Assembly (NCBI GenBank): GCA_002307015.1
Contig: DBTK01000131.1
Coordinates: forward strand, 723 to 64,722
Reading direction: 5' to 3'
Source: Spirochaetaceae bacterium UBA1318
GTDB lineage: Bacteria; Spirochaetota; Spirochaetia; Treponematales; UBA1318
Length of the DNA: 64,000 nt
Part shown: piece after piece, positions 23,238-53,094 of the stretch
How positions within the stretch are numbered: position 1 is the first letter of the stretch
Layout: the number at the start of each line of letters is the position of its first letter
The notes under the pieces: model-generated
Databases searched by the model: none
What the model saw: only the letters and a program-made list of their open reading frames with translations
What the model was told of the DNA's origin: nothing
Position numbers and translations under genes: made by a program

Positions 23238-23239
23238 AA

Positions 23240-31067: not shown

Positions 31068-32522
31068 ATGATCGTAGTAAAATTGGCGTTCCGCAACTTG
31101 GTCCGGAACGGTAAAAAAAACCTGACCATCGGCATACTCATTGCCCTCGGTATCGCGATGATGTTCGTCGGCAACGCGATTTTCGACGGCACCGACAGCG
31201 GAATCAGGCGAACCTTCATCGACAGCTTCACGGCCGATGTTTCGATCAGCGCCTCCTCGGAGGAATCCTTCAGCATTTTCGGGAACGAGACCCCGGTCAT
31301 CGGGGAGCTCTCGACCGTTCCGACCATCGTGCCCTACGACGAGGTCCTCAAGGCCGCGGTCGCGAAACGAGGGGTCGCGAAGACCGCCTCCGTGGTTTCC
31401 GGTCTCATCGGCATCGAGCTTCGCGACAAGCGCGAGGCCGTTCCCGTTTTCGGGGTCGACGGCGACGGCTACTTCGCCTGCTTCCCCGGCATCGACATCC
31501 TGAAGGGGTCGCGAATTTCCGGTTCCCAGCCGGGCATCATGCTGACGGAAAAACGGGCCGCCGATATCGAGAAACTGACGGGGAAACCCCTCGTCATCGG
31601 AGAGCCCGTTCAGGCCGACGTCCTGACGGCCAAGGGCTTCCAGATCAGGGAGGTCCCGCTTACCGGGATTTTTCGCTATCCGGTCGGGAACGAAACCCTC
31701 GACCGGATCGTCATCCTCGACGTGACGACCCTCAGGTCGCTCTACGGGCTCACCCTGGGCGTCGATACCTCGGCCATCGCCACCAAGTCCCAGACCGGGC
31801 TTCTGGACAAAAGCGTCAACGATCTTTTCGATACGGGCGACGCGACGGCCCAGACCGCTTCCGGGATCACCATCACCGACGTCGAGAAGAACCTGAAGGA
31901 AACGGAAAAGCGGAACGAGCTTCTGAAGGTCGATACGGGAGCCTGGGATTTCATCCTGCTGAGACTCGAGCCCGGGGTCAATTCGGCCCTTTTCGTTCAA
32001 AGTTTGAATAAGGAGCTTTCGTCGAAGGGCTGGGCGGTCAAGGTCGCCGACTGGCGGCATACCGCAGGCAATTCGGCCCTGTTCATCTACTGGCTCGGCA
32101 TCATCTTCAACATCGGTTTCCTGATCATCGCCATCGCGGGGACGATCATCATCATCAACACCCTCGTGATCGCCGTCCTCGAGCGGACGGGCGAGATCGG
32201 CACGATGCGGGCCATCGGGGCCTCAACCGGTTTTGTCAGGAAGCTTCTGCTTGCCGAGATGATGTCGCTTTCGGTTGCCGCGGGAATCGCCGGAATCGTC
32301 GTGGGAATCCTCGCCGTCCTGGCACTGTCGAGGACGGGGGTCGCCCTCCACAACCCGATACTCGTCTCGCTGTTCGGGACCACGGTGCTCCGACCCCAGG
32401 TCACCTTCACGGGAATCCTGAGGCATCTGGGCGTTGCCTTTCTCATCGGCGCGATATCGTCGATGTATCCCGTACGGCTTGCGCTCAGGATCCAGCCTGT
32501 CCGCGCCATCGCGACGGAGTAG
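31068..32522 (+). CDS. FtsX/MacB/LolE-type ABC permease (no NBD)
   Basis: Start MIVVKLAFRNLVRNGKKN (typical FtsX-like N-terminus). A large periplasmic domain sits between TM1 and TM2. C-terminal FtsX domain: ERTGEIGTMRAIGAS. Confidence 0.8.
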   Translation: MIVVKLAFRNLVRNGKKNLTIGILIALGIAMMFVGNAIFDGTDSGIRRTFIDSFTADVSISASSEESFSIFGNETPVIGELSTVPTIVPYDEVLKAAVAKRGVAKTASVVSGLIGIELRDKREAVPVFGVDGDGYFACFPGIDILKGSRISGSQPGIMLTEKRAADIEKLTGKPLVIGEPVQADVLTAKGFQIREVPLTGIFRYPVGNETLDRIVILDVTTLRSLYGLTLGVDTSAIATKSQTGLLDKSVNDLFDTGDATAQTASGITITDVEKNLKETEKRNELLKVDTGAWDFILLRLEPGVNSALFVQSLNKELSSKGWAVKVADWRHTAGNSALFIYWLGIIFNIGFLIIAIAGTIIIINTLVIAVLERTGEIGTMRAIGASTGFVRKLLLAEMMSLSVAAGIAGIVVGILAVLALSRTGVALHNPILVSLFGTTVLRPQVTFTGILRHLGVAFLIGAISSMYPVRLALRIQPVRAIATE

Positions 32523-32525
32523 GAA

Positions 32526-33821
32526 ATGGCAAACGAGATCCTTTTCGCGTTCAGGAACCTAACCCGTCAGCGGAGACGCTACCTCCTCCTGGGGGGCGGC
32601 ATCGGATTCGGCTTTCTGATCATCACGATGGTCACCGGCCTCCTCGGCGGGATGATATCGAACCTCCAGCAGAAGGCGATCATCTACTACGGCGGAGACT
32701 TCACCGTCATAGGGAGCGAAAAGACGGGCAAGAACACCATGATCCGTCTTCCCGAGATCGGGGCGGCCGTCGAAAAGGCCTTTCCTGGCGGAAGGGCCAC
32801 CGCCTCGCTCAGAACGGTGAACCGTTCCTCGGGGAACGTCCTCTTTTTCGGCGGGGACTCGGTCAGGCAGCGCCAGCTGACGGGCGTCGACTGGGCGGTC
32901 GAGGAACCGATTTTCAGGAAGCTGAACTACGTCGAGGGCGGCGCCGAGGGGCTCGCCGGCACGAACGGGGTCCTGATCTCGGAGCCCATCGCGAAGATGC
33001 TCGGGGCCAGGGTCGGCGACGACCTGATGATCCTCGCCGACACCATCAACGGCCAGAAGAACACGACGACCGTCGTCGTCAAGGGCATTTTCCGCGATTC
33101 GAGCCTCTTCGGCTATTACACGACCTACATCGACCGGAAGGTCCTGAATGCCTTCATCGGCTATGGTCCCGACGAGGGAACCGAGGCGGGGATCTATTTC
33201 GGCGAAACCCGGCCGACCGAGCGGGAGCGTTCCGCTCTGTACTCCTCGCTCAAGGACAGCCTTCCCTTTTTCCCCATGGTGAAGACGATCAAGGAGATGA
33301 GGGACGTCCAGGACTCGGGTCAGTGGGACGGGATCAAGTACGTCTTCCTTCCCCTCGACGCCCACCTTTCCCAGATCAACCAGATGGTCGAGGCGATCTC
33401 AGCCCTCTCCTTCGTCCTCGTCTTCATCCTGCTCGCCATTCTCGTGCTCGGCATCGGAAACACCTTCCAGGTCCTCGTCTACGAGAGATCGAGGGAGATC
33501 GGCACCATGCGGGCGCTCGGAATGCAGCGGATTTCCGTCTCCCGGCTTTTCCTCTCGGAGGCGGGCGGGCTCGCGATCGCCGGTTCCCTCGTCGGATTGC
33601 TCGTTGGAATGATGCTTCTCTGGGCATTCTCGAAAGTGAATTTTTCCTGGATACCGGGCTTCGATGTCTTTCTCCGGAAGGGTCGCCTTTCCTGGAGGCT
33701 CGATTCCCTCGAGGTCGTCGGAGAGCTAGTCCTGATGATCGTCGCTTCCCTCTTCGCCGCCTGGTCGCCCGCCAAGCGGGCAGCCGCCATCGAACCGGCT
33801 CAAACATTGCGTACGGAGTAA
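32526..33821 (+). CDS. FtsX/MacB/LolE-type ABC permease (no NBD)
   Basis: FAFRNLTRQRRRY N-terminus, a periplasmic domain, and ERSREIGTMRALGMQ with three C-terminal TM helices. Confidence 0.8.
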   Translation: MANEILFAFRNLTRQRRRYLLLGGGIGFGFLIITMVTGLLGGMISNLQQKAIIYYGGDFTVIGSEKTGKNTMIRLPEIGAAVEKAFPGGRATASLRTVNRSSGNVLFFGGDSVRQRQLTGVDWAVEEPIFRKLNYVEGGAEGLAGTNGVLISEPIAKMLGARVGDDLMILADTINGQKNTTTVVVKGIFRDSSLFGYYTTYIDRKVLNAFIGYGPDEGTEAGIYFGETRPTERERSALYSSLKDSLPFFPMVKTIKEMRDVQDSGQWDGIKYVFLPLDAHLSQINQMVEAISALSFVLVFILLAILVLGIGNTFQVLVYERSREIGTMRALGMQRISVSRLFLSEAGGLAIAGSLVGLLVGMMLLWAFSKVNFSWIPGFDVFLRKGRLSWRLDSLEVVGELVLMIVASLFAAWSPAKRAAAIEPAQTLRTE

Positions 33822-33823
33822 CC

Positions 33824-34609
33824 ATGAAACGGATATTTTTTTACGCCCTTCTGCTCGCCCTCGTCGTGATCGGATCGGCGCCCTACGTCGGAGCCGAGGA
33901 CGCTCCGGATTTCAAAGCGATGCTGAAGACCGTCGACGGCCTCGTGTCTTTCATGGATACGGATTTCTCGGCCGAGTATGCCATCGTGCTGGACAAGCCG
34001 GGTGAGAGCAGGAGCGTGACGGACGCCGTCATGTTCAGGCGCGACAAGGACGAGAAGTACCTCATCCTGATCCTCGAACCCACCTCGGACAAGGGCAAGG
34101 GCTATCTCAAGATCGGGCAGAGCCTCTGGCTCTACGATCCCCTGAGCCGCCGGTTCACCTTCACGAGCTCCAAGGAGCGCTTCCAGAATTCCAACGCGAG
34201 GAATTCGGACTTCACCCGCTCCAACTTCGCCGGGGACTACGACATTGTTTCCGGCCATCGCGAGGCTCTCGGCCGGTTCAATTGCTGGGTCATCGACCTC
34301 AAGGCGAACAACGACGGTGTTTCCTTCCCGAAGACCAAGATCTGGGTGAGCGACGACAACCTGGTCAGGAAGACCGAGGATTACAGTCTCTCGGGCCAGC
34401 TGATGAGAACGACGGCCATTCCGACCTACCAGAAGGTGGGCAACCGCTTCCTTCCCGTCACGATGCTCATCGTCGACAACCTCAGGGGCAAGACGATCAA
34501 CGGCAAGCTCGAGAACGAAAGGACCCAGATCACGATCACGAAGCCCTCCCTCTCGACCTTGCCCGACTCGATCTTTACGCAGGCCTATCTCGAAAAGGTC
34601 AGCAAGTGA
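33824..34609 (+). CDS. Outer-membrane lipoprotein-sorting (LolA-like) protein
   Basis: Start MKRIFFYALLLALVVIGSAPYVGA (signal peptide). MDTDFSAEYAIV..KYLILILEPTSDKGKGYLKIGQSLWLYDP matches my recollection of the LolA_like family that accompanies FtsX-type permeases. Confidence 0.65.
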   Translation: MKRIFFYALLLALVVIGSAPYVGAEDAPDFKAMLKTVDGLVSFMDTDFSAEYAIVLDKPGESRSVTDAVMFRRDKDEKYLILILEPTSDKGKGYLKIGQSLWLYDPLSRRFTFTSSKERFQNSNARNSDFTRSNFAGDYDIVSGHREALGRFNCWVIDLKANNDGVSFPKTKIWVSDDNLVRKTEDYSLSGQLMRTTAIPTYQKVGNRFLPVTMLIVDNLRGKTINGKLENERTQITITKPSLSTLPDSIFTQAYLEKVSK

Positions 34610-35922
34610 CCTTTTCCCTTTTCCGGTCGTTCAGGACTTTCGCAGTCTTCTTCCCTCTACTCTTTCTGATCGCGGTGGCTTCGCCTCGACTCGCCGCCGC
34701 GGACTCGACGGTTCAGGCGAGCGACGGAAGCTCCGCCTCGGCGGGAGCTGACGCGGCCGGGACTTCCGGTTCGATCGCCGAAGACGGCTCGACGATTCCG
34801 GCCGATGACAGCTCGTCGGTCGACCAGCTTTTCACCGCCCCCCAGGCGGATACGGTCACCAAGGAAGGCGGATCCCTCCTCGGCAAGTTCGACGATCATC
34901 AACCGATCACGGTGACCGGATCCCTCCAGGCGATGGGGGGAGCCGTCGTCGGCGTTTCCGACGGCCCCACCGCAGGCACCTACCAGTTCGGGATGAAGCC
35001 CGGGATGAGCATCACCCCGAGCATCACCTTCGACGCGAGGCCCGATAGGACCTTCCGCATCCACGGGACGGCCACCGCGAAATATCCAGGCGACTTCGCG
35101 GTCGGCTTCAGCGAACTTTTCTTCGATTACACGGTGAAGGATTCCACCTACGTCCGGGTCGGCAAGCAGCTGATCGGCTGGGGCATCACGCGGCTGTTCG
35201 ATGTCGGGGATCTGATGTCGGACAGCGACGACGGCGTGGCGGCGAAAGTCTACGTTCCCGTCGACGGCATCGGAATCACCTCGGTCGTTCTCGTCAAGAC
35301 GAGTTACGGCATCACCTCGGACAACGTGGACTTCAAGAGCCTCGGCTACGGCCTCCAGGGGGACGTTCCCCTCGGCCGCTCGGAGATGCTCTTTTCCGGC
35401 TTCTACCACGATGCCGATTCGACGCCGGGAAAGGCGACGGCGACCTACAAGACCTCGATGCTGGGCGTCGACCTTTTCGCCGAAGGCATCGGCAATTTCT
35501 ACAAGACGAAAGAGCCCTCATTCTCCGGGGCCGTCGCCGGCTTCTACTGGGAGAAGATAGAGCCGAGCCTCAAGATCTACGGCGAGTATTACTTCAACGG
35601 AGAGGATTCCTCGGGAACCGACCACCGCGCGTCGATCGTCGTCGGTACGAACAATATCCCGGGGACCCCGTTCAAGGCGGCGATCCAGTGGACCCACGCG
35701 TTCATGGACAATTCGGGATCGGTGGTTCCCGTTCTCTCCTTCAGTCCCTGGCCCCATGTTTCCATGCAGTACGGCCTGCCGGTCAGGTACGGCGCGTGGG
35801 GAAGCTACTATGTCGTGAACGGCTCTCCGATCGTGCAGACCACGGCGGAGAAGAACAACGCCCTGAGCTGGGCGCAGAGAATCGGGTTCATGTTCCGGTT
35901 GACGCTGAATGTCGGATTCTAG
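34606..35922 (+). CDS. Putative outer-membrane beta-barrel protein
   Basis: GTG 34606 overlaps the upstream TGA. Hydrophobic signal FAVFFPLLFLIAVASPRLAAA. Alternating aromatic and Gly-rich strands end in ...RLTLNVGF, a C-terminal Phe typical of OMPs. Confidence 0.45.
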   Translation: MTFSLFRSFRTFAVFFPLLFLIAVASPRLAAADSTVQASDGSSASAGADAAGTSGSIAEDGSTIPADDSSSVDQLFTAPQADTVTKEGGSLLGKFDDHQPITVTGSLQAMGGAVVGVSDGPTAGTYQFGMKPGMSITPSITFDARPDRTFRIHGTATAKYPGDFAVGFSELFFDYTVKDSTYVRVGKQLIGWGITRLFDVGDLMSDSDDGVAAKVYVPVDGIGITSVVLVKTSYGITSDNVDFKSLGYGLQGDVPLGRSEMLFSGFYHDADSTPGKATATYKTSMLGVDLFAEGIGNFYKTKEPSFSGAVAGFYWEKIEPSLKIYGEYYFNGEDSSGTDHRASIVVGTNNIPGTPFKAAIQWTHAFMDNSGSVVPVLSFSPWPHVSMQYGLPVRYGAWGSYYVVNGSPIVQTTAEKNNALSWAQRIGFMFRLTLNVGF

Positions 35923-37167: not shown

Positions 37168-37659
37168 CTACTGACTGAGCCAGGACTCCTGCGCCGTCTT
37201 GATGTAGGCGAGAAGATCCTCCGGTTTCGGTTTTCCCTGCAGCAGGGATAGAAAATCTTCCCTCTGGCAGAGGTAGGAAACCCTCGACAGGATCTGGAGG
37301 TGAAGCCGGGCCTGGGCCGAGAGCAGGATGAAAAGCACGAATACCGGGCTCTTGTCCAGGGCCTTGTAATCGATGGGATCCTTCAGGAAACATACGGAAA
37401 TCAGCTGATCCTCCGGAAGGGGAATGAGGGGATTTCTCGGATGCGGGATGGCGATTCCATGGCCGACCGCGGTCGGCATCAGGTCTTCCCGCTCGATCAT
37501 GGCCGAAAGGACGGCCTCGCGGCGCACCTCCGCCGGAAGCCGGATCTTTTCCACCGCGTTCTTCAGCACCGCTTTCGGCGTATCTCCGCCGATATCATAG
37601 AAAATGCCGCCCTTCCTCACCAAAGCCTCAAGGTCAATCCTACCGCTTTCCATGTCCAC
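37168..37659 (-). CDS. ptsN: PTS EIIA (fructose/mannitol/Ntr type), PtsN-like
   Basis: 163 aa. MPTAVGHGIAIPHPR contains the phosphorylatable His of the EIIA-2 family. Confidence 0.75.
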   Translation of the reverse strand: MDMESGRIDLEALVRKGGIFYDIGGDTPKAVLKNAVEKIRLPAEVRREAVLSAMIEREDLMPTAVGHGIAIPHPRNPLIPLPEDQLISVCFLKDPIDYKALDKSPVFVLFILLSAQARLHLQILSRVSYLCQREDFLSLLQGKPKPEDLLAYIKTAQESWLSQ

Positions 37660-39526
37660 TCCCTTTTTTTATCCCCGATACCAGCCTGTTTTGTGTCTTT
37701 TTGAGGTCGAAGCGCCTCGGGTCGAAGGCCCTGCCGAGCGTATCGGCCGCGAAGGCTTTCGCGCCGGCGTCTGCGCCGCCGAGCGCCGCGATGAGGCCGA
37801 GATACCCGACGACGCCGCCTGAGTCTTCCGGCGGGGACGCCCCCTCTCCCTCGACGAGTTCCGGGACTGCCGAAACGACAGGTCCGGCAGCGGTTTCCAC
37901 GGCGACGACCTTCACCGTGCATTCCCAGTCGTCGCCGAAATCGTACTGGTACGAAAAGGCCGACACGTCGATTCCGAGAACCTCTCCCAGGAGGTACTCG
38001 CTGTCGTCCGCGACCGTACCGAGATCCTCGTCCGAGGGAAGGCCGAACCGCTTCCCGTCCACGAGGAATTCGTGGAGGTGGCAGTCCCGCCATCCCATGA
38101 CGGCCTGGATGCTTTCATGGAGCTGCCTCAGCGTGACGACCGAGGGTACGCGCAACCTGCGACGGATCTGCGGCTCGATCCCGTCTATCGTCACGTCGAG
38201 CAGGTAGGCCGAGTCCGACTGGATGGGCTTTTTCACGGGGGGGGATTCCCTCGGCAGGTCCGAAGGCCCCTCGGTCGCGAGGAGCTCGAGACTCGCGTCC
38301 ACCTTCCCGAGGGATTCCCTGAAGTCGGCGGCGTCGTCCTTGCCGATGCCGGCCGGGTCGTTCAGAAGCGCGATGATCGCGTGGATCTGGGCGACGAGCA
38401 TGTTCATCAGGGTGAAGGGATCTTCTGAATCGGGATCATCGTCCGTTCGGTCGAAGCGATCCTCTTCCGCCAGGTCGGAGAGGGCGTTCAGCGCCTTTTC
38501 GAGAAGGGTGATGCAGTAGGATCGGAGAGGACCGGAATAGGCATCGGCCTCACGGTCGTAGGCGGCCGTGATTTTTTCACGCAGCTTTCTGGTCAGCGCC
38601 TCGAACTCGCAGGTGTCGTTGTTCTTTTCGAGCCTTTCCCGCCATTTTTCGCCGAAAAGCTCGATGTCGAGATGTTCGGTGTCGCCGAGGTGGTTGAAAA
38701 GGGCGTCCTTGATGTAGCCCTCGTACAGGGCGCTCGTCATGATGAGTTCGTTGCGCATGAAGAGGCGCGTGAGTTCGTCGAAATCGCTGTCCACGCCCGA
38801 TTTCTCGTCGGCGGCCGCGCTTCGGACATGGTCGACGGACGAAAGGTCCTTGTGGATGAAACGCTGTTCCTCGTGGGCTTTCCCGATGCCGATCGTATTG
38901 TTCTGATTCACGAATTGGGCGATCGTGACGACCGGATGCTGGATTATCCAGGGGCCGGCGTCGAGGACGGCGGCGGCAAGCTGCTCCTCCATGTCGGCGT
39001 CCGGGCCGATCGTGTCGATCGCCCTGAGGAAGGCGGCCTCGAAGCGCTCGTTCCACTCGCGTATCTCGTCCTGACGTTCAAGGAGTTCCCTGGCCGGCGT
39101 ATGGATCAGGACGAACTCGCCCTTCGCCCAATCCCTGACCGTGGCGATGAACCCGTCGCCTGGCTTGAACCCGAGCTTCCTGTAGGGCCTGGCCATGTCG
39201 AACACGGAGACGATGGCTTCCTTCTCTTCGCTCGTCTCTGTGAGGAGGGCCGCATTCTTCCTGTCGTCGTTGATCAGGAATTCGACGAGACGGTTCGAAC
39301 CGAAAAGGCTGTAGTAGATGCCCAGATCGCCCATGGCCGCATTGAGGTCGGTCCGCGGAAGCTCGACGCCGTTCATGAAGGCGCGCAGTTTCCTCGGCTT
39401 GATCGCGGGGGCGTAGAAGGGGATGAAACGATGTCCCGGTATGAGGATGTCGCTCGCGATCTCTTCCCTCGTGGGAACGATGAGGAATCGCGCTCCGGTG
39501 AACGGACTCGGGCTGGGCGAATTCAT
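37640..39526 (-). CDS. Protein with C-terminal pRiA4b ORF-3-like (MM3350-like) domain; N-terminal 430 aa unknown
   Basis: 628 aa. YLLDVTIDGIEPQIRRRLRVP...LHESIQAVMGWRDCHLHEF...YQYDFGDDWECTV matches the pRiA4b ORF-3-like domain pattern. Its 3' end overlaps ptsN by 20 nt. Confidence 0.7.
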   Translation of the reverse strand: MNSPSPSPFTGARFLIVPTREEIASDILIPGHRFIPFYAPAIKPRKLRAFMNGVELPRTDLNAAMGDLGIYYSLFGSNRLVEFLINDDRKNAALLTETSEEKEAIVSVFDMARPYRKLGFKPGDGFIATVRDWAKGEFVLIHTPARELLERQDEIREWNERFEAAFLRAIDTIGPDADMEEQLAAAVLDAGPWIIQHPVVTIAQFVNQNNTIGIGKAHEEQRFIHKDLSSVDHVRSAAADEKSGVDSDFDELTRLFMRNELIMTSALYEGYIKDALFNHLGDTEHLDIELFGEKWRERLEKNNDTCEFEALTRKLREKITAAYDREADAYSGPLRSYCITLLEKALNALSDLAEEDRFDRTDDDPDSEDPFTLMNMLVAQIHAIIALLNDPAGIGKDDAADFRESLGKVDASLELLATEGPSDLPRESPPVKKPIQSDSAYLLDVTIDGIEPQIRRRLRVPSVVTLRQLHESIQAVMGWRDCHLHEFLVDGKRFGLPSDEDLGTVADDSEYLLGEVLGIDVSAFSYQYDFGDDWECTVKVVAVETAAGPVVSAVPELVEGEGASPPEDSGGVVGYLGLIAALGGADAGAKAFAADTLGRAFDPRRFDLKKTQNRLVSGIKKGSGHGKR

Positions 39527-39577
39527 GGTTCTAATAATGGTGAAGAAGCGTCAAATTATCAAGCGGAAACGGAACGA

Positions 39578-39606
39578 AGCGCGGCGATGAGCCGCGCTTT
39601 TTTTTT
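39578..39606. terminator. GC-rich hairpin flanked by a T9 run (A9 on the other strand), abutting a second hairpin; possible bidirectional terminator after lgt
   Basis: AGCGCGGC (39578-39585), loop GATGA, GCCGCGCT (39591-39598), then T-run 39598-39606. A second hairpin GCCCGGG/CCCGGGC at 39607-39625 touches the lgt stop codon. Confidence 0.4.
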
Positions 39607-39624: not shown

Positions 39625-40677
39625 CTACCTGATTTTTTTCCGCGTTCTCCGCGCCGAGTTTCGGCCAGACTTTTCCCTGGTTCCCGTCTCCCGGAAAATC
39701 GCCGTTCCGGTACCCGAGGCGGACGACCTCCCTGGATGTCGGCGCGACCAGCCCCGCGCGATCGCGAGGAAAAGAATTCCGCCGATGATCATCAGGAAGC
39801 ACAGGATCTGTCCGGTCGAGAAATTCCAGGGGCTCGAGAAAAGGTAGGTCGGCGCGTCGCCGTGGGCGAGGCTGATGCGGTACCCGATGCCCGCGTCCGG
39901 TTCCCGAAAATACTCGATGAAAAACCTGACGATGCCGTACCCGATCATGTACCATCCCATCACGAAGCCGTCGTAGGACTTTCGCTTCCTGATGAAGAAC
40001 CAGAGAAAGGCCCAGAGGACGAGCCCTTCGAAAAATGCCTCGTAGAGCTGGGATGGATGGCGGGGGAGATTGAGCAGGCCGGCGGGGTCCGGGATCGACA
40101 TGCCGATCTTTCCTGCGATGTTCTTGACCCAGGGGTCCGAAGCGGGAAAGCGCTCGGCCTCCGGAAAGATCATGCCCAGGGGGCTCGAGGTGACGCGTCC
40201 GTAGAGTTCCCCGTTGATGAAATTTCCCAGTCGACCGAAGGTGTAGCCGAGGGGGACGGCGGCCGCGACCGTGTCGCCCCAGTCGAGGAAGCTGATCCTC
40301 TTGACCCGGCAGAAAACCACCGTCGCGACGATCGCACCCAGAAAGCCTCCGTGGTAGGACATGCCCTGGAGTCCCGTGAACGCGCCGGTCTCATCGAAGG
40401 GCCAGAATACGAGCCAGGGGGCCCTGAGGTAGCGGCCCGAGGTGTCGTAGACGATGGTCGCGAAGATCCGCGCGCAGACGAGGACGCCGATGATCGTCCA
40501 GAAAAAATAGCTCGTCACCTCGTCGGCGTCGTAATTGACTTTGCGTTCCCTGAGCTGGCGGGAAACGAGAAGGTAGGTGATCGCGAAGGCGACGAGGTAC
40601 ATGAATCCGTACCAGCGGAAGGGAAGTCCCGGAATGATTTCCGGCCTGATCCAATCGGGATAATTCAGATACGACAT
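39625..40677 (-). CDS. lgt: Prolipoprotein diacylglyceryl transferase with a basic C-terminal extension of about 60 aa
   Basis: FRWYGFMYLVAF, GMSYHGGFLGA and GRLGNFINGELYGR. 350 aa, versus about 270-290 aa typical. Confidence 0.92.
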   Translation of the reverse strand: MSYLNYPDWIRPEIIPGLPFRWYGFMYLVAFAITYLLVSRQLRERKVNYDADEVTSYFFWTIIGVLVCARIFATIVYDTSGRYLRAPWLVFWPFDETGAFTGLQGMSYHGGFLGAIVATVVFCRVKRISFLDWGDTVAAAVPLGYTFGRLGNFINGELYGRVTSSPLGMIFPEAERFPASDPWVKNIAGKIGMSIPDPAGLLNLPRHPSQLYEAFFEGLVLWAFLWFFIRKRKSYDGFVMGWYMIGYGIVRFFIEYFREPDAGIGYRISLAHGDAPTYLFSSPWNFSTGQILCFLMIIGGILFLAIARGWSRRHPGRSSASGTGTAIFRETGTREKSGRNSARRTRKKIR

Positions 40678-40693
40678 GGGCTGTTCGGACTCC

Positions 40694-43639
40694 TCACGTT
40701 AAGGGCTTTTCCTGGATGTGGCCGCGTTCCTGATCGAAGAAGAAAACAACCCGCGTCTTTTTCTGCTTCACCTCGAAGTACCTGCCGTGGCTTTCGAGAA
40801 CGACTCCGGGATACACGGTTCCGCGTATCCGAATTTCGGAGGGGAAGTGTTCCTCGAATTTCTCCCTCAGCGTGAGGAGGCGGTGGGACCGTTTTTCGAG
40901 CAGCTTGATGAGCGAAACCTTTTCCTGACCGAGGGCGTCGATCTTGCCTCCCGAGTTCGCGAGACGCTTGATCTCGATGTCGAGTTTCACGATGCGGTTT
41001 TTCAGGTCCGAGGTTTCGCGCTCCTCGAGATCGATCTGGTCGCCGACGAGGTAATCCTGGCCGAAGGAGAGTTCCGTCTTGACGCCCGATTCGGTCCCGA
41101 TGTTCATCGTGTCGATGCCCTTCTTCGCCTTGCAGCTGCCGCCGACGAGGGTGCCGCGTTCGCCCGAGAGCGAGAGCCGCCCGTTCGTCTTGACCTTGCA
41201 GTTGAAGCACTGGTTCTTCATCTCGATCGTGTCGACCGAGAGGAGCACGGTGCCTTCGGCGAAGAGGGTGTGGATGCTCGTCTTCGCCCTGACGATGGCC
41301 TTTCCTCCGCCGCGGATTCCCCCGCCGACGGTGACCGAGCCCTCGGCCGAGAGCAGGGCGGCCTCCATGGCTCCGGCGACGATGATCGATCCGCCGGCGA
41401 AAAGCTGGGCGCCGTTTCCCACCGATCCCGATATCGCCACCTCGCCGGGAAACCTGACAGGACCTGCGGCCCTGGTGAAGTCCCCCTCGACGAGACGGCG
41501 GCTTACGACGCTCAGTCCGTTGCCCGAGTAGTGGAGCTCTCCCGACCTGGCGGCTATGAGGACGATGGATCCGTCCGCAGCCTTTTCCTCTCTCAGGCCG
41601 TCGTCGTGCTTGATCGCCATGGGTTCGGCGGTTTCGGAGGGAGGGGCTTCGAGTTCCCCTTCCTTTACCTTGACGACGGCGCCGGTAACGTCCCACCCGT
41701 CCTGAGAGCCGCCGGAATCCTTGGAGAGCTTCGCGACCGGCTGGCCCTGTTTGACCGAGGCCGAGGCACCGGCGACGGAATCGGGAATACCGGTGAGCTT
41801 CACGAGGAATTCGGGCTTGGGGGTTCGCGAGTCCTGCGGGGGCTTCCCCCTGGCGATTTCACGTTCGCGTACCGGATTTCCCTCCAGGGCCTCGCGCAGC
41901 GCCTTCCCGAGGGCCTCGCCGTCGATTCCCTTGACGATGTTCTTCGCCTTGAGTGCCTCGTGGACCCGATCGGCGGTGAGAGGTTTTCCCGCGCCGACCT
42001 CTCGTTCGAGGGTGAGGTAGGCATCCATGCCGTCGGAGCGGACCCTGGCCGAAATGACGGCGTCCTTGTGGGGGACGATCCTGAGGAAAAAGGAGTTCTC
42101 CTCCTGGCTGTAGTGCAGGAGGCCGTCGACCTGGGCTTCGACCGAATTCCCCGAAAACCTGACGTTCTCGAAAGGCTGGATCTCGGGGTCGTTCCCGGGA
42201 AGGCCGGCGAGCACGGTACCGAATACGTCGACTCCAGCCGTTCCCGGTTGGGCGGGCGGCATCTGCAGGATGTTCTGGCCCTTCTGGACGAAGGCGAATT
42301 TCTGGACCTTGGCAAGCGGGAAACGAAGGGTCGAAGGGTACTTCAAGAGAAGCTCGGGTCTTGCCTCGCAGCGTTTCCGTATCTCCTCGGAAACGTCCTC
42401 TGGCAGGAAGGTGACGGCCGGCTGGGCGATGCGGTCCTTGCCCCGGCCCGCGGCCATTCCCTGGGCGAGGGGATAGTCCTTGAGCTCGAGGTTGGGTCCG
42501 TTGATGAAATCGAGGATGTCCTTCTTCACCTGGTCGAGCTTGAGGTTCTTGAGCTTCTTCTCGTTTATCGCGGCGCTGATGTCCTTGAGCTGAAGCCGCT
42601 TCCCGGAGCCCGTACCTTTCTTTGCATAGAGGGTCGCGCTGAGGCCTTCCGGGGTGATGTCGACTCGGACGAGGGCTTCGCCCGAGGCGGAAAGCGGAAC
42701 CGAGGCCAGCGGCTCGTCCTCGTCGATCGATTTCTTGAGCAGGGCGGCGATCTGGCTTTCCTCGAAGATGTTCGAGGCCGGCACTCCCGCCTCCACGGCC
42801 GCCGCGAGAATTTCCGCAGCCTGAGGAATCGGGAGCCTCAGATCGCCGGGAATGAAGTCGAGGTAGGCCGTCGACTTGTCCTCGGAGGCGCGTATGGACC
42901 AGCGGTGGACGGCAAAGGGAATGACGTCCACCCAGTTTTCGCCGATGCGGGTAAAGCCGGTGGTCTCGGTCCAGAGCTCGTTCTTGTCGCGCTTGATCCC
43001 CGAACCGCAGAGGAAGTTGACCCCCGAGGGAGGGGTCGGCGACGGTACGGGCATGCCGAAGATGCTTTTCCCGTTCTTCCCCGGCTTGGAGGGGCTGACG
43101 ACCCCGATTCTGGTTCCTGCGACCGCGAATCCCTTTTCGAGGGTCTCCGGATTGACCATGGCCTTTTCCTTCACCTCGCTCGTTTCATAGGTGACGACGA
43201 TTTCCTCTTTCGGCGGAAGGAAGGGAAGGGCGGCGGGTTTCTTGATCTTCGTTTCTTTCTTGATCTTTTCCAGGCGGATTTCGAAGATTTCCGGGTTGGG
43301 GCCCGAAAAGAAGATCTCGTCGGCGAACGAGGCGTAGGTGTCGGGAATGGTCAGGTCGGCCCAGGTGACCCGTTCCGGAACGGGCTCTTCGGGGGGAACG
43401 CCCTTGACGATGACCGAGGTTATCGGGGTTTTCGATCGCGCGTATTTCTGTACGAGATCGTCGAGCCCGCGCTGGGTATAACCCTGGCTGATGCGGTTAT
43501 CCATCAGCATGCGCTGGATTTTCTCGACATTCCATTCGGCGCCGAGGGGATCGGGCGTGAAGGTCAGTGAAGCCTCGAGCCCCGCCTCATCGATATCGAG
43601 TCGTACCGAACCTTTCGCGATCGATCCGCTTGCGGGCAT
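40694..43639 (-). CDS. FapA/DUF342-family protein, unusually long (981 aa) with repeated N-domain-like modules
   Basis: The C-terminal beta-helix-like region (GSVGNGAQLFAGGSIIVAGAMEAALLSAEGSVTVGGGI...CKVKTNGRLSL...GGSCKAKKGIDTMNIGTESG) plus a terminal coiled coil is typical of DUF342. Upstream are 3-4 copies of a V-x-I-x2-D-x3-A-x-L...I..G module. Confidence 0.75.
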   Translation of the reverse strand: MPASGSIAKGSVRLDIDEAGLEASLTFTPDPLGAEWNVEKIQRMLMDNRISQGYTQRGLDDLVQKYARSKTPITSVIVKGVPPEEPVPERVTWADLTIPDTYASFADEIFFSGPNPEIFEIRLEKIKKETKIKKPAALPFLPPKEEIVVTYETSEVKEKAMVNPETLEKGFAVAGTRIGVVSPSKPGKNGKSIFGMPVPSPTPPSGVNFLCGSGIKRDKNELWTETTGFTRIGENWVDVIPFAVHRWSIRASEDKSTAYLDFIPGDLRLPIPQAAEILAAAVEAGVPASNIFEESQIAALLKKSIDEDEPLASVPLSASGEALVRVDITPEGLSATLYAKKGTGSGKRLQLKDISAAINEKKLKNLKLDQVKKDILDFINGPNLELKDYPLAQGMAAGRGKDRIAQPAVTFLPEDVSEEIRKRCEARPELLLKYPSTLRFPLAKVQKFAFVQKGQNILQMPPAQPGTAGVDVFGTVLAGLPGNDPEIQPFENVRFSGNSVEAQVDGLLHYSQEENSFFLRIVPHKDAVISARVRSDGMDAYLTLEREVGAGKPLTADRVHEALKAKNIVKGIDGEALGKALREALEGNPVREREIARGKPPQDSRTPKPEFLVKLTGIPDSVAGASASVKQGQPVAKLSKDSGGSQDGWDVTGAVVKVKEGELEAPPSETAEPMAIKHDDGLREEKAADGSIVLIAARSGELHYSGNGLSVVSRRLVEGDFTRAAGPVRFPGEVAISGSVGNGAQLFAGGSIIVAGAMEAALLSAEGSVTVGGGIRGGGKAIVRAKTSIHTLFAEGTVLLSVDTIEMKNQCFNCKVKTNGRLSLSGERGTLVGGSCKAKKGIDTMNIGTESGVKTELSFGQDYLVGDQIDLEERETSDLKNRIVKLDIEIKRLANSGGKIDALGQEKVSLIKLLEKRSHRLLTLREKFEEHFPSEIRIRGTVYPGVVLESHGRYFEVKQKKTRVVFFFDQERGHIQEKPLT

Positions 43640-43691
43640 CTTCTCTCCTACCGCACGAATTTATAGGAATGGGTCTCGTTGTGCAAGCTCG

Positions 43692-44834
43692 TCACGGCTT
43701 GAACCCCGCCTGAATCGCCTTCGTCAGCTTGAACTTGAGAAATTGGTTTTCCTTTTTAAGCTGGTTGAGCTCGTACTGCTGCGACTTCACGGTTTCGATC
43801 AGGTCGCCCATGCTCAGGGCTCCCGAATGCAGGAGGTCTTCGACGTAATCGAGCTTGTTCTCGAAATCGATCTGGGCCTCGACCGTCGCCTCCTGGTAGG
43901 ATTCCTCGAGGCTGTCCCGGTCGAGCGGTCCCTCCTCGTCGTTCTGCGACTGGATGACCTTGTCCGCGATTCGGCAGACCGCCTGGGAGAGGATGGACTG
44001 GGGCTTGTAGACGATGACGGGCATCCGGGCCGAAAGGGCGACGTCCTGGATGGTGTCGCGATAGATGATTCCCAGGTGCTCGAGCTCGAGTCCGAGGTAT
44101 TCGCTCGCCGATCGGCGGATCTTGATCGCCTTTTCGGCATCCTTCGGATCCTCGATCATGTTCAGGATGAGCCGGGGCCGGAACCTCGCCCGCTTGGCCA
44201 TGAAGGCCGCGTAGCTTTCGGGGTCGTCCTTGGCGATCTTCTCGAGCAGCTTCGGCAGGTAGATCTTCTGGAGGGCGTTCCCTTCCTTGCGGAGCTGTTC
44301 GAGGTAGCGGTACGCGATCGAGGACGGCTTGAAGGAGGTGTACATCAGGCGGAAGAGGGCGTTTTTCAGGAAGAGGTAGGCGTTGAGGACTGCCGTTACC
44401 GCCGGGGTCGTCACCACGATGCCCTGTCCCGATATAAGGAAGAAATCGAGGATGTTCGCCCCCGTTCCCGCGCCGAGGTCGAGGATGAGGTAGTCCGCCT
44501 CGAGGGTGAGGAGCCTCTTCACGAGGCGGTTCTTCTGGTTGGCGTGGAGGTTCGCCATGCCCGGGATTTCCGAATCGCCCGGGATGAAGGAGAGCCCGGG
44601 GAATTCGGTCGGAAGCACGATGTCCTCGAACTTGCGTGAGGAATCCGTCATGAAGGTTCCGATCCCGGTCTTGGGCGACTGCTGTCCCAGGATGAGGTGG
44701 AGGTTCGAGGCGCCGAGGTCGAGGTCGGCGAGGATGACCCGTTTTCCCGCCTTGGCCAGGGCAATGGAGAGGTTCGCGGCGACGAGCGATTTGCCGACGC
44801 CGCCCTTTCCGCTCGCTATCGGGATGATGCGCAC
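43692..44834 (-). CDS. MinD/ParA-superfamily P-loop ATPase (FlhG/MinD-like) with coiled-coil C-terminal extension
   Basis: GTG start. Deviant Walker A IASGKGGVGKS, then ILADLDLGASNLH. The C-terminal amphipathic end FLKFKLTKAIQAGFKP resembles a membrane-targeting helix. Confidence 0.85.
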   Translation of the reverse strand: MRIIPIASGKGGVGKSLVAANLSIALAKAGKRVILADLDLGASNLHLILGQQSPKTGIGTFMTDSSRKFEDIVLPTEFPGLSFIPGDSEIPGMANLHANQKNRLVKRLLTLEADYLILDLGAGTGANILDFFLISGQGIVVTTPAVTAVLNAYLFLKNALFRLMYTSFKPSSIAYRYLEQLRKEGNALQKIYLPKLLEKIAKDDPESYAAFMAKRARFRPRLILNMIEDPKDAEKAIKIRRSASEYLGLELEHLGIIYRDTIQDVALSARMPVIVYKPQSILSQAVCRIADKVIQSQNDEEGPLDRDSLEESYQEATVEAQIDFENKLDYVEDLLHSGALSMGDLIETVKSQQYELNQLKKENQFLKFKLTKAIQAGFKP

Positions 44835-45331
44835 TATTCCCGCTCCTTTCCCGGCTCGTCCGATACGTCCTCGATGGCGTTTTCCGTGGTGGAATCGGGC
44901 ATCCGGACCGTTCCCTCAGCGGAGGGAGGCTGATCTCGGGGGATCTCGACTCGCGGACGGGAAAGCGCGAGGACGGCGACGGCTATGGCGTCGCCCGCGC
45001 CGACGAGGACGGTCGCCCTGAATCGCGAGACGGTCGAGACGATGCTCCCGTCCGCTCCGGCCCTTCCCAGGACCGTGAAAACGAAGGCCACGGCCGCGAG
45101 AAGCGAGACGAGCTTCGCCGCGATCAGCAGGGGTCGGTACGGGGAATAGCGCCCGTAATCGAACCAGAGGAAAAAGAAGGCCGCCGCGAACAGTATCTGC
45201 GGGGCGAGGGCGAATACGGCGGTGCCGTAGCCCGCGGCCGACTGTGGCGCGCTCACGAAGGCGGCGACGATATAGAACCTGGCCAACTCCCAGGCCGCGA
45301 GGACGAGGAAGGCGAAGGGACGATGCTTCAT
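44834..45331 (-). CDS. Hypothetical 4-TM membrane protein
   Basis: 165 aa with four hydrophobic helices. Its stop TAG shares one nucleotide with the GTG start of the ATPase gene (TAGTG). Confidence 0.5.
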   Translation of the reverse strand: MKHRPFAFLVLAAWELARFYIVAAFVSAPQSAAGYGTAVFALAPQILFAAAFFFLWFDYGRYSPYRPLLIAAKLVSLLAAVAFVFTVLGRAGADGSIVSTVSRFRATVLVGAGDAIAVAVLALSRPRVEIPRDQPPSAEGTVRMPDSTTENAIEDVSDEPGKERE

Positions 45332-45401
45332 TTGTCTTGAGTGTACGTTTCAAGTCCTTGACGGTCAAGTATATCCGGCCGTTGGCGTCCCGTCGGCGTA
45401 G

Positions 45402-45429
45402 TTGACAAACCGCCTCCCGTATCTAGAAT
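45402..45429 (+). promoter_or_regulatory. Sigma-70-like promoter placed for a leaderless ctp transcript
   Basis: TTGACA (45402-45407), 16-nt spacer, TAGAAT (45424-45429). The A of ATG 45436 lies 7 nt after the -10 hexamer. Confidence 0.4.
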
Positions 45430-50366: not shown

Positions 50367-51089
50367 TCATTGGGGATTTCCTTTCAGGTGCTCGATCTTG
50401 TTGAAAAGGTACTCCAGATAATCCAGCTCTCCCTTGCTCAAGGCCGCCCGGGCGAAAATATCGCGCAAGGTCTTTCTCGTGTCTTCGGGATTTCCCTGCT
50501 TGTGGAATCCGATCGCCTTGAGGTTCCCGAGGATGCCCTCCGACAGACCCTCCACCTGGGCGAGGGACACCGGCTGATAGCTCGCCGATTGTCCACCCGT
50601 CGCGTGCCGGAAGAGCTCGTAGGCGATCACCTGGACGGCGTGTGAGAGGTTGAGCGAGGGGAAGAGCTCGGAAGAGGGTATGTGGACGGCCAGGGGACAG
50701 AGGGAAATCTCCTCGTCGGAGAGGCCCGTCCTTTCGCAGCCGAAAACGACCGCGATGTCCCCGTCGGGAAGCGACCAGGCCTTCTCGGCGAAGTCCTCGG
50801 GAAGGAAGGAAAACCGCTTGCGCTTTTCGCCTCGTCGCCTGGTGATCCCCGCCGCGATCGCGACGTCGGCGAGGGCCTCCCTCAGGGTCGGAACGATTTC
50901 CGCCTTCTCGAATACGTCGAAGGCATGGACCGAGAATATCCGGACCTGTTCCGGGTCGATGTTTTCCGCGCCGGCTATGCAGAGCCGGGTGAATCCCATC
51001 GTTTTCATCGCCCTGCAGGCGAATCCGATGTTTCCGCTTTCGGATGGACGGGCGAGGACGAATTTGAAGCGCTCGAAGTTGTATTCCAT
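50367..51089 (-). CDS. trmJ: SpoU/TrmH-family tRNA 2'-O-methyltransferase, TrmJ-like
   Basis: SESGNIGFACRAMKTMGF, VFGCERTGLSDEE and PSLNLSHAVQVIAYE align by eye with E. coli TrmJ motifs. Confidence 0.8.
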   Translation of the reverse strand: MEYNFERFKFVLARPSESGNIGFACRAMKTMGFTRLCIAGAENIDPEQVRIFSVHAFDVFEKAEIVPTLREALADVAIAAGITRRRGEKRKRFSFLPEDFAEKAWSLPDGDIAVVFGCERTGLSDEEISLCPLAVHIPSSELFPSLNLSHAVQVIAYELFRHATGGQSASYQPVSLAQVEGLSEGILGNLKAIGFHKQGNPEDTRKTLRDIFARAALSKGELDYLEYLFNKIEHLKGNPQ

Positions 51090-51201
51090 GATTTCCGGTC
51101 CTGGTCGGATTTGGCCGGATGCTGAAACCGCAGGGGTTCAGCATGCCGTCCGAGATTGAAGCAAAGTCGTTTTGTGCATAGACTGTCAAGCGGGGGTTCC
51201 G

Positions 51202-51957
51202 ATGGTTTCAACCGGATCGGCTGATGGCAGGAAACTGGCTGGCAGGAAGGCCGTCGTGATCGGCGGCACCGGGGGCATAGGCTCCGCGATGAGCCTCGCC
51301 CTGGCCGAGGCCGGGGCCCATGTTTTCGTGACCGGGGGAAGGTCCCTCCCAAGGCTCGAATCCCTTCTGGAGAGGATCCGCGGTATCGGTGGCTCGGCCG
51401 ATGGCGAGCTTCTCGCGATCGACACTCCCGCCGACGTTTCTTCGGCGGCGGAACTCGCCGCGAATGCGGATATCCTCGTCGTCGCGTACGGGCCCTTCCT
51501 GCAGAAGCCCCTTGCCGAGACTGAGGCCGATGACTGGGGACGAATGGCCCTCCTGGACCTCGCGCTTCCGGGAAGCTGCGTTTCATCCGCACTGCCCGGC
51601 ATGGTCTCCAGGGGCTACGGCCGCATCGTGCTTTTCGGCGGCACGGGAACCGATCTTCCGCGGGCGGTGGAGACGAATTGCGCCTATGCCGCCGCGAAGG
51701 CGGGACTCTCAACCCTCGTCAAGTCGGTGGCCGCCTCCTTTGGACCGAAAAACGTGGCGGCCCTGCTCATCTGCCCCGGGTTCACCGATACCGAGTATCT
51801 TTCCCCGGATGAGAAACGGGAGCTTGAGGCACGCATGCCCGGCGGAAGGCTCATCAATACCGGGGAAATTGCCGGAATCGGCGTCGAATTTGTCACGCAG
51901 GAGAGGGCCGTCGTGAACGGAGCCAGCCTTTCCGTCGATTGCGGAAAAAAATACTGA
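51202..51957 (+). CDS. Short-chain dehydrogenase/reductase
   Basis: VIGGTGGIGSA cofactor loop and YAAAKAG catalytic motif. The start is chosen at ATG 51202; a GTG at 51172 is also possible. Confidence 0.8.
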   Translation: MVSTGSADGRKLAGRKAVVIGGTGGIGSAMSLALAEAGAHVFVTGGRSLPRLESLLERIRGIGGSADGELLAIDTPADVSSAAELAANADILVVAYGPFLQKPLAETEADDWGRMALLDLALPGSCVSSALPGMVSRGYGRIVLFGGTGTDLPRAVETNCAYAAAKAGLSTLVKSVAASFGPKNVAALLICPGFTDTEYLSPDEKRELEARMPGGRLINTGEIAGIGVEFVTQERAVVNGASLSVDCGKKY

Positions 51958-52018
51958 TCCGGCCCCCCTAGACTTCCGAAAATGGGTTATATTGGTGGAT
52001 GATACGGCGTAAGGACAT

Positions 52019-52047
52019 TTGACAAATGCATTGAAGCCTAATAATAT
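52019..52047 (+). promoter_or_regulatory. Near-consensus sigma-70 promoter for the STAS-PspA operon
   Basis: TTGACA (52019-52024), 17-nt spacer, TAATAT (52042-52047). AAAGGAG lies 5 nt before ATG 52096. Confidence 0.55.
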
Positions 52048-52095
52048 ACTTAAATTAAAGTATTGTTCTTGTCGGATGGAGTCTAAAGGAGCGCC

Positions 52096-52647
52096 ATGAC
52101 CAATAACGAGATCGTACCGGGTTTCGATGACGAAAAAGACGATAGCCTGAAGATTCGGCTTCAGAAAGCCGACAACGCGAATGGCTGTCTGATCCTTTTC
52201 CTCACCGGCTATATCGATACCTACAACTCAAACTTTTTTCAGAAGCGCGTTTCCAAGGCCATCGAGGCGGGATTCATCAGGCTGATCTTTCACTGCGGCG
52301 GCCTCAACTACGTCTCCTCAACCGGCATCGGTTCGTTCACGGCGTTCCTGAAAAATGTGAAGCCCCGGGGGGGGGACATCGTCCTTCTTGAAATACAGCC
52401 GAAGGTATATGAGGTTTTCCAGCTTCTTGGATTTTCCCAATTCTTCAACATCAAGGACAATCTGGACGAGGCGGTCGACTTTTTCCTGCGTGGGGATCAG
52501 ACGGGCAAGACGGATATCTTCCCGAAAATTTTCGCCTGTCCCATCTGCTCGAAAAAACTGAAAGCGACGAAAGCGGGACGTTTCCGGTGTTCGGAATGCA
52601 AGACGATTCTCGCGATCGACGCGAACGGTCAGGTCTTCCTGGGATAA
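52096..52647 (+). CDS. STAS-domain (anti-sigma-factor-antagonist-like) protein fused to a C-terminal zinc ribbon
   Basis: LFLTGYIDTYN...HCGGLNYVSSTGIGSF (conserved Ser position)...VFQLLGF. The C-terminus has CPICSKK...CSECK (two CxxC pairs). Confidence 0.75.
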   Translation: MTNNEIVPGFDDEKDDSLKIRLQKADNANGCLILFLTGYIDTYNSNFFQKRVSKAIEAGFIRLIFHCGGLNYVSSTGIGSFTAFLKNVKPRGGDIVLLEIQPKVYEVFQLLGFSQFFNIKDNLDEAVDFFLRGDQTGKTDIFPKIFACPICSKKLKATKAGRFRCSECKTILAIDANGQVFLG

Positions 52648-52696
52648 CCCTCACCATTCCGTGCAATCAGCCACTCGTCGTATCAAGGAGGACGCG

Positions 52697-53083
52697 ATGC
52701 CCGAGTTGAGCAAGATAGAAACGTACCTCGTCGACCTAAACCTGAAGTACAGAGAGATCGCTCCGAACGGATGGCTGATCAACGACGACTCGAGGGGGCT
52801 GGAAGAGACTCTCGTGATGTTCGTGGCGCCTCTGGTCATCGTGCGCGTGAAGATCATGGATTTGCCGACGTCGCGCCGCGAGGAATTCTACGAGCAGCTC
52901 CTGCGGTACAATGTCGTCGATCTGGTTCACGGGGCCTACGGGATCGACGGGAGCGACGTGATCCTGATCGACACCCTGGAATACGATTCGTTGAAGAAAG
53001 AGGAGCTGGAGGCATCGCTCGATGCGGTCGCTCTCGCCCTCAATAGACATTATCCAGTCCTTTCAAAATATAGAGACAAGTAA
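52697..53083 (+). CDS. Small acidic protein, YbjN/T3SS-chaperone-like (PspA-associated)
   Basis: Start at ATG 52697 after AAGGAGG. 128 aa. The family assignment rests on general resemblance only. Confidence 0.4.
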   Translation: MPELSKIETYLVDLNLKYREIAPNGWLINDDSRGLEETLVMFVAPLVIVRVKIMDLPTSRREEFYEQLLRYNVVDLVHGAYGIDGSDVILIDTLEYDSLKKEELEASLDAVALALNRHYPVLSKYRDK

Positions 53084-53094
53084 GGGAGGCCGGC

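Follow-up and report, generated by a model that had tools for sequence, protein, structure and literature searches.

We describe a conserved gene association in spirochaetes, in which a MinD/FlhG-type ATPase is encoded beside lgt, the gene for lipoprotein diacylglyceryl transferase. It was met in a 64,000-nucleotide stretch of contig DBTK01000131.1 of Spirochaetaceae bacterium UBA1318 (hereafter the window), where four co-directional open reading frames (ORFs) on the minus strand (45331-39625) encode, in this order, a small protein with four transmembrane segments (4-TM), a MinD/ParA ATPase, a giant FapA/DUF342 protein and Lgt. What is new here is the conserved association of an FlhG/MinD-type ATPase and a FapA-family protein with lgt, both kinds of protein being already known. 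Tentatively, and with somewhat less than even confidence, we read the unit as a spirochaete-specific, non-flagellar module in which the ATPase, co-transcribed with lgt, would be a switch that sits on the membrane and positions an envelope process associated with Lgt.

The genes and the signals that bound them are the following.

44834-45331, minus strand: 4-TM protein gene, an ORF of 165 aa that shares 1 nt of its stop codon with the GTG of the ATPase gene
43692-44834, minus strand: ATPase gene, an ORF of 380 aa with a GTG start; ParA/CbiA/AAA_31 families
40694-43639, minus strand: FapA/DUF342 gene, an ORF of 981 aa with an ATG start; Pfam FapA_N and FapA beta-solenoid
39625-40677, minus strand: lgt, an ORF of 350 aa; TIGR00544 and Pfam LGT
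45340-45368, minus strand: promoter-like site TTGACC-17-TACACT upstream of the 4-TM gene, a consensus match only
39577-39599, no strand assigned: GC-rich hairpin immediately past the lgt stop, with a good T-tract if read on the plus strand and a weak one on the minus strand
39562-39534: promoter-like site of the next gene (PRiA4_ORF3 family), after the hairpin
45402-45429, plus strand: divergent promoter-like site for ctp, a consensus match

The tight linkage of the four genes, as put forward in the original prediction made from this DNA, was borne out by reading the junctions. The 4-TM and ATPase genes meet in TAGTG, a 1-nt overlap with AAGGAG upstream, the ATPase and FapA genes are separated by 52 nt with TAGGAG ahead of the FapA ATG, and the 16-nt gap between FapA and lgt contains GAGGAG, all three internal start codons being preceded by a ribosome-binding site of the AGGAG type. 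The ATG of the 4-TM gene has no Shine-Dalgarno sequence, and the operon has a single promoter-like site, whose -10 element ends 8 nt ahead of that ATG, so that the mRNA may be leaderless. Within the four-gene unit, no promoter or hairpin signal rose above shuffled expectation, and the hairpin past lgt is likely the end of the transcription unit. The setting is non-flagellar, as had been claimed: the annotated genes across the 64-kb window include no flagellar gene. The organism resembles Treponema among the spirochaetes, and its contig is also present in a JGI metagenome and in an SRA assembly.

We next asked how far this arrangement extends. Excluding the window's own contig, 15 orthologue loci with a full-length ATPase (44-77% identity) were compared, and in all 15 lgt lies downstream of the ATPase gene on the same strand. 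In nine of these it follows directly, after 2-130 nt (several Treponema metagenome-assembled genomes (MAGs), Borrelia parkeri and L091, a 2-Mb JGI contig), and in the other six a FapA gene stands between the two (Breznakiella homolactica, a Rectinemataceae MAG, an Alkalispirochaeta MAG and three others). Gaps within the unit measure 2-46 nt in most loci. The ATPase-lgt pair is intact in two loci with wholly different flanking genes (L091, L007), as well as in one where the Ctp block has moved downstream (L013).

An alignment of the giant FapA was also scanned against metagenome contigs, which yielded 80 loci, 75 of them assessable. The ATPase gene is immediately upstream of FapA in 70 and lgt immediately downstream in 69 (~92-93%), so that giant FapA is indeed flanked as in the window. 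FapA and lgt stay linked where the ATPase is missing (L166-L171), and in the two ATPase-less loci that were inspected closely FapA is preceded by a 4-TM gene and by the gene of a signal-peptide protein of ~500 aa. All pairings are found (ATPase-Lgt; ATPase-FapA without Lgt; transmembrane protein, another gene, FapA and Lgt without ATPase), as is typical of functionally linked genes, and the persistence of lgt beside either the ATPase or FapA in every combination, through rearrangements, argues for a link to Lgt or to an envelope process around it. The conserved, ancient core is the ATPase-Lgt pair; FapA and the 4-TM protein are frequent, dispensable, modular additions. Conservation of the neighbourhood, as originally envisaged, therefore holds for the pair but not for the four genes as a set, since FapA or the 4-TM protein is absent from many lineages, including Borrelia. 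The lineages with FapA between ATPase and lgt, together with a coupled 4-TM gene, comprise many free-living or gut Treponematales-type lineages and Alkalispirochaeta. This distribution suggests that the four-gene form is old, and we infer that genes were lost later on, in Borrelia as well as in host-associated Treponema.

Two genes of variable occurrence were seen at these loci. The ~500-aa signal-peptide protein occupies the interval between the 4-TM and FapA genes, in the ATPase's place (L169 2449-3957; L171 2407-3906), and a 406-aa gene without a Pfam match lies between ATPase and FapA in L005 (6720-7940). Either product may belong to the module as an extra part.

Judging from its sequence, the ATPase is an orthologous group of its own, of ~380 aa, and represents an uncharacterised spirochaete ParA/MinD subfamily. 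Many proteins of Treponema, Spirochaetia, Rectinemataceae and Breznakiella share 62-77% identity with it over the full length, and an exhaustive search of representatives added orthologues at 44-53%, including that of Borrelia parkeri. Two of its elements are mapped here.

44787-44813, minus strand: deviant Walker A motif SGKGGVGKS, ATPase residues 8-16
43698-43730, minus strand: basic amphipathic tail, ATPase residues 369-379

An alignment of 35 sequences shows no change at G9, K10, G11, G14, D37, D39 and D119, and hardly any at G12 and K15. The protein misses both MinD equivalog models (TIGR01968/TIGR01969; 74.3 bits versus a cut-off of 212.9, and 92.8 versus 201.75), to which it aligns over residues 2-152 only. 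By sequence and fold, the nearest structures are FlhG (4RZ2/4RZ3) and FleN (5J1J), followed by archaeal and bacterial MinD and by Soj; the best Foldseek match of the AlphaFold2 (AF2) model (predicted local distance difference test (pLDDT) 88.5) is FlhG 4RZ3 (E 2.7e-18, TMt 0.89).

The two ends of the ATPase set it apart. Its N-terminus, MRIIPIASGKGG, begins two residues ahead of strand beta-1, also in Treponema- and Borrelia-type orthologues, and thus lacks the N-terminal helix with the FlhF-activating DQAxxLR motif. More distant relatives in the alignment have ~9 additional N-terminal residues, and canonical FlhG proteins carry the motif ahead of the P-loop, as MMDQAEHLR in L050 and in degenerate form as MPDQTETLK in L035. 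At the other end, an extension of ~85 residues (~300-375) is modelled as two long helices, 306-336 and 342-375, the last of which has a heptad-like pattern, YELNQLKKENQFLKFKL, and then the basic amphipathic KLTKAIQAGFK. This stretch has a hydrophobic moment of 0.63, versus 0.38-0.40 for MinD membrane-targeting peptides in the identical calculation. Most close orthologues keep the tail as KLxKA[IL]xxGF[KR], with moments of 0.57-0.85, and it is not conserved in relatives at 31-37% identity. A C-terminal membrane-targeting helix is therefore plausible on sequence and model. The whole segment FLKFKLTKAIQAGFKP had been likened to the MinD amphipathic helix; the likeness fits the last 11 residues, KLTKAIQAGFK, whereas the first half belongs to the long heptad-like helix 342-375.

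Further ATPases of related type were noted in passing. Many proteins related to the ATPase at 36-40% identity are 690-790 aa long and join the ATPase domain to an extended array of tetratricopeptide repeats at the C-terminus (P0210, P0221, P0224, P0229, P0243). The Salinispira chromosome has a 267-aa gene, an ATPase, MCP, CheY, CheA, CheR and CheB in this order (L019 7998-15449), and ATPases of the L019 type (L019, L023 and L026; 39-41% identity to the window ATPase) recall the ParC/PpfA-type ATPases that position chemoreceptor arrays.

The ATPase carries the parts that the MinD/FlhG cycle calls for (dimerisation on ATP, a C-terminal amphipathic helix for the membrane, release by hydrolysis), and a mechanism can be sketched on that model. 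The ATPase dimer, loaded with ATP, would attach to the inner membrane by this predicted helix and be released by hydrolysis; the 4-TM protein, translationally coupled to the ATPase, would possibly aid this binding as a candidate receptor; and the membrane-bound ATPase would recruit the FapA-like scaffold. The module would thereby set the site of an inner-membrane envelope process along the long spirochaete cell. The best candidate for that process would be Lgt-dependent lipoprotein lipidation or the machinery around Lgt, with the module as an accessory organiser that takes no part in Lgt catalysis. Of the spatial-organisation system for an envelope process that was first proposed, the tight unit in a non-flagellar setting has stood; gene order is the one line that suggests a functional link of ATPase, FapA and 4-TM protein to Lgt.

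This dependence on gene order is the first of several points that weigh against the proposal. Membrane binding, dimerisation and FapA recruitment are carried over from MinD and FlhG. Conserved operons of lgt with unrelated genes exist in other phyla, namely hprK-lgt in Firmicutes and lgt-thyA in enterobacteria. At the loci themselves, the divergent Ctp-RsmE block is as conserved as ATPase-lgt and has no obvious shared function with it, which shows that gene order can last here between functionally unconnected genes. Among the 75 assessable FapA loci, five have FapA-Lgt without an upstream ATPase and six have no lgt after FapA, ATPase-FapA being present in five of these six, and a 385-aa ATPase relative at 33% identity does not adjoin lgt. 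Finally, the supplement of a Borrelia burgdorferi transposon sequencing study gives insertions at 3 sites in BB_0360 and at 4 sites in BB_0361, and lists none for BB_0362 (lgt). As BB_0361 tolerates insertions, the ATPase appears dispensable for growth in culture and would not be needed for the presumed essential activity of Lgt.

Several of these points (the lgt operons of other phyla, the Ctp-RsmE block, ATPase-FapA without lgt, the insertions in BB_0361) speak for a rival reading, in which the ATPase, FapA and 4-TM protein position some other cargo (the division site, the chromosome or cell cycle, chemoreceptor arrays) and lgt is an essential housekeeping gene on the same transcript. Such hitch-hiking also fits the nearest relatives outside the orthologous group (36-41% identity, ~329 aa), which lie beside chemotaxis genes (L019 from Salinispira, L023 and L026). 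We hold this explanation to be a real, if doubtful, possibility. It does not readily account for an adjacency of ATPase and lgt that is found in 15 of 15 loci across deep divergence (ATPase identity down to 44-48%) and that survives complete turnover of the flanks, nor for the linkage of FapA to lgt even without the ATPase, nor for the very short gaps.

In Borrelia parkeri, a divergent Ctp-RsmE block is followed by a 4-TM protein of 142 aa, an ATPase of 377 aa (46% identity), Lgt and an EAL phosphodiesterase. The stretch corresponds to bb0359-bb0363 of B. burgdorferi, with which the coordinates of BB_0360 and BB_0361 agree. Genes bb0360-bb0364 are co-transcribed in B. burgdorferi according to Sultan 2010, as cited in PMC9108270. 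The papers that we found give neither bb0360 nor bb0361 a function.

We then considered whether the module might be a second flagellar regulator, that is, a duplicated FlhG/FapA set that helps to pattern the multiple subpolar periplasmic motors and has come to lie by lgt incidentally. The FlhG and FapA families are otherwise tied to flagella, as members of the FlhF/FlhG/FlgV/sigma-28/FapA sub-module that Zamba-Campero et al. 2024 defined (PMC11607428), whose composition matches the gene order of two spirochaete MAGs in our set (L030, L031): fliR-flhB-flhA-flhF-flhG (288 aa)-242 aa-fliA-FapA (647 aa; Jag_N, FapA_N and FapA). FlhG and FleN are also the best structural matches of the ATPase, JGI automatic annotation labels it FlhG, and all carriers met so far that have a taxon assigned are Spirochaetota, mostly of genera known as flagellated, several loci being without a taxon. 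Cluster look-ups for distant representatives gave Borrelia parkeri and MAGs of Treponema or Spirochaetia, and no Sphaerochaeta.

Nevertheless, the genomic evidence separates the two systems. In a scan of a genome collection, which gives a sample of matches and not a census, at least 30 weaker ATPase matches lay in canonical flhA-flhF-flhG-fliA clusters of many phyla, none of them with lgt nearby. Conversely, none of the 16 ATPase orthologue loci (the window and the 15 others) had flhA, flhF or fliA near the ATPase gene, or lay in or near a flagellar cluster; orthologues in such a cluster, which would have cast the context here as a rearrangement artefact, were looked for, and only distant paralogues (~29% identity) turned up there. 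The window ATPase shares 29% identity with spirochaete FlhG of the L030/L031 type, and lacks the FlhF-activating motif. The C-terminal 460 residues of the window FapA are 27% identical to canonical spirochaete FapA, the 647-aa form of which is conserved at 54-62% within Spirochaetia, including Alkalispirochaeta and Salinispira. Both FapA types occur in Alkalispirochaeta, at the genus level. In Borrelia, bb0267 is fapA, bb0268 flgV and bb0269 flhG (PMC11607428; also PMC5333916). Borrelia thus keeps flhG and fapA genes of its own besides the ATPase linked to lgt, so that the module looks like a separate paralogue of the flagellar pair rather than a displaced copy. A flagellar role therefore strikes us as decidedly unlikely.

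The giant FapA protein is assigned to its family with confidence: of the two Pfam models (PF20250 and PF03961), FapA_N scores 170.9 bits against a cut-off of 27, in three stretches, and the beta-solenoid domain 158.3 bits against a cut-off of 31. Its parts are arranged as follows.

42830-43618, minus strand: FapA_N unit 1, residues ~8-270
42065-42709, minus strand: FapA_N unit 2, residues ~311-525
41525-42058, minus strand: FapA_N unit 3, residues ~528-705
41060-41542, minus strand: FapA beta-solenoid (beta-helix), residues ~700-860
40856-41053, minus strand: helical hairpin, residues 863-928, from the AF2 model
40703-40837, minus strand: small C-terminal beta domain, residues 935-979, from the AF2 model

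The three FapA_N units are mutually homologous (hhalign E 3e-11 to 7.6e-20) and alike in topology in the AF2 model, which has a pLDDT of 87.4 and a predicted template modelling score of 0.44, the latter leaving the relative placement of domains uncertain. Homologues of the giant form measure 960-1010 aa at 35-44% identity; shorter forms of ~730 aa lack the first FapA_N unit. The protein has no Jag_N. In L005 (8001-10980), two overlapping genes stand for the homologue, one for the FapA_N part (761 aa) and one for the beta-solenoid (250 aa); the split is either genuine or due to a frameshift in a long-read assembly.

The weak database matches of this protein all fall on the C-terminal domain of MinC, at FapA residues ~709-788, where the AF2 model has a beta-helix. 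MinC_C (PF03775) scores 17.2 bits, below the Pfam cut-off of 33.2, NCBIfam MinC is likewise weak, and the PDB matches 1HF2, 6RIQ and 4V02_C have E values of 0.05-0.36. A profile of 52 FapA sequences searched against the PDB brought no gain for MinC (E 0.054), hhalign against E. coli MinC gave a probability of 0.9% over 23 residues, and Foldseek of the whole AF2 model against the PDB returned no MinC match. No real minC-minD operon, sought for a MinC profile, was present among the fetched loci. Homology of the beta-solenoid to the MinC C-domain thus has no statistical support, as the Pfam, NCBIfam and phmmer matches recur and are never significant, and it was rejected as evidence. A MinCD-like division inhibitor, in which the ATPase would act as MinD and the FapA beta-solenoid as the MinC C-domain, in a membrane-bound copolymer blocking FtsZ, thus has to its credit the position of those matches and the presence of MinD among the structural matches of the ATPase, and is highly improbable given their insignificance, the lack of a MinE and the absence of FapA from many lineages that keep the ATPase.

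The identity of Lgt is clear, with 254.4 bits to TIGR00544 at equivalog level (cut-off 118.9, residues 3-307) and 220.8 bits to Pfam LGT (residues 15-305). It ends in an additional feature.

39628-39762, minus strand: basic C-terminal tail of Lgt, residues ~306-350, ~45 aa with 14 K/R in the last 45

The tail had been described as an extra basic segment of about 60 aa. It is basic as stated, but ~45 aa long, and it is lineage-specific: a polybasic end resembling R-K-x-R-R-K-L-R-K-K-L-R is found in 7 of the 15 loci (L001, L002, L003, L005, L009, L010, L012), whereas the remaining eight, Borrelia among them, have a short tail without the motif. Co-variation of the tail with FapA was ruled out, as the tail occurs in three loci that lack FapA (L009, L010, L012) and is missing from three that have it (L007, L014, L017).

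The small membrane protein has four hydrophobic segments and an acidic C-terminal tail, and no match to it was found in Pfam or NCBIfam. Similar multi-TM ORFs of 140-200 aa abut the ATPase start in L002, L003, L005, L010, L017 and Borrelia (L089). The same holds for 32 of the 50 metagenome loci that could be assessed, and half of these (16) show the 1-nt overlap. The 4-TM gene is absent from L012-L016.

MinD/ParA ATPases are the standard bacterial means of positioning cargo, and spirochaetes such as Treponema and Borrelia have an unusual wealth of lipoproteins, the dominant molecules of the cell surface and of the interaction with the host. To our knowledge, the spatial organisation of envelope biogenesis in long, thin spirochaete cells is largely unknown. 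In its boldest form, the proposal would hold that duplication of FlhG and FapA gave rise to a positioning system dedicated to lipoprotein biogenesis, with the giant FapA as scaffold and the 4-TM protein as anchor where they are present. The system would confine or pattern Lgt, and with it the place of lipoprotein lipidation and export along the very long cell, for example at zones of growth or division. We consider this specific version rather unlikely; if true, no positioning ATPase would have been assigned to an enzyme of lipoprotein maturation before. The lgt-adjoining ATPase is in any case a phylum-wide and genetically tractable candidate, bb0361 mutants being available in the Borrelia transposon library. 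Its context also indicates that a protein like FlhG or FapA need not be flagellar, a point of weight for automatic labels such as the 'FlhG' given by JGI. Were the link to lgt only transcriptional, the ATPase would still define a new spirochaete ParA/MinD subfamily with variable partners.

The rest of the window holds a large polysaccharide-synthesis cluster (~1-31 kb), an FtsX-FtsX-TP_0789-like set, GT4, PRiA4_ORF3, phosphotransferase system (PTS) EIIA and sigma-54 activator genes, a STAS-CesT-PspA cluster and a Ctp-RsmE-WecG block that is divergent from the four-gene unit. Directly downstream of lgt, the gene for a PRiA4_ORF3-family protein of 628 aa overlaps one for PTS EIIA (type 2) (37168-39526, minus strand). 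The pair occurs near lgt again in L016 (12289-14034), and PRiA4 homologues lie near the lgt locus in L002 (16792+) and L013 (371-1009). A link between EIIAGlc and FapA exists in Vibrio; we rejected a comparable link for the nearby EIIA (Ntr-type) gene, which belongs to another EIIA family and a separate transcription unit. Two FtsX-family permeases, a TP_0789-like protein (LolA-like lipoprotein-sorting fold) and a 438-aa gene (31044-35922, plus strand), 4-8 kb from lgt, may form another lipoprotein-related unit. A STAS, CesT_Tir_1-like and PspA/IM30 set (~50600-53100, plus strand), followed by Trans_reg_C in the window contig, is kept beside Ctp-RsmE-WecG in the window, Breznakiella and the Rectinemataceae MAG (L002 64-1787; L003 1-1128). 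Within the polysaccharide cluster, positions 20000-24000 (GT2, GtrA, FdtA, DegT) have a GC content of 0.41-0.48 versus ~0.60 elsewhere, which suggests a horizontally acquired cassette.

Among known systems, MinCDE is similar in that a MinD-like ATPase, here predicted to be membrane-targeted, is encoded beside a beta-helix protein, and differs in that the ATPase misses the MinD equivalog threshold, similarity to MinC is not significant and MinE is lacking; neither minC nor minE is present in the window. FlhG and FleN (YlxH) are MinD-type ATPases that control flagellar number and placement. They are the best sequence and structure matches of the ATPase and share with it the deviant Walker A motif with its signature lysine, the catalytic aspartates, a predicted C-terminal amphipathic helix and a FapA-family gene nearby. 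Unlike them, the ATPase, at ~24-29% identity, has no DQAxxLR helix and carries ~85 extra C-terminal residues, and its gene never adjoins flhF, flhA or fliA, is always linked to lgt and co-occurs in Borrelia with a genuine flhG (bb0269). The FapA proteins differ as well: the canonical spirochaete form has 647 aa (Jag_N, FapA_N and beta-solenoid) and is encoded after fliA, whereas the giant form has 981 aa with three tandem FapA_N units, is less conserved (35-44% versus 54-62%) and has its gene not in the FlgV/sigma-28 sub-module but between those for the ATPase and Lgt. A further counterpart is the bb0360-bb0364 operon of B. burgdorferi, with bb0361 as an ATP-binding protein and bb0363 as PdeA. 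It differs from the window in having no FapA at the locus and no basic Lgt tail and in extending into the EAL phosphodiesterase gene, and its arrangement is orthologous to that of the window locus.

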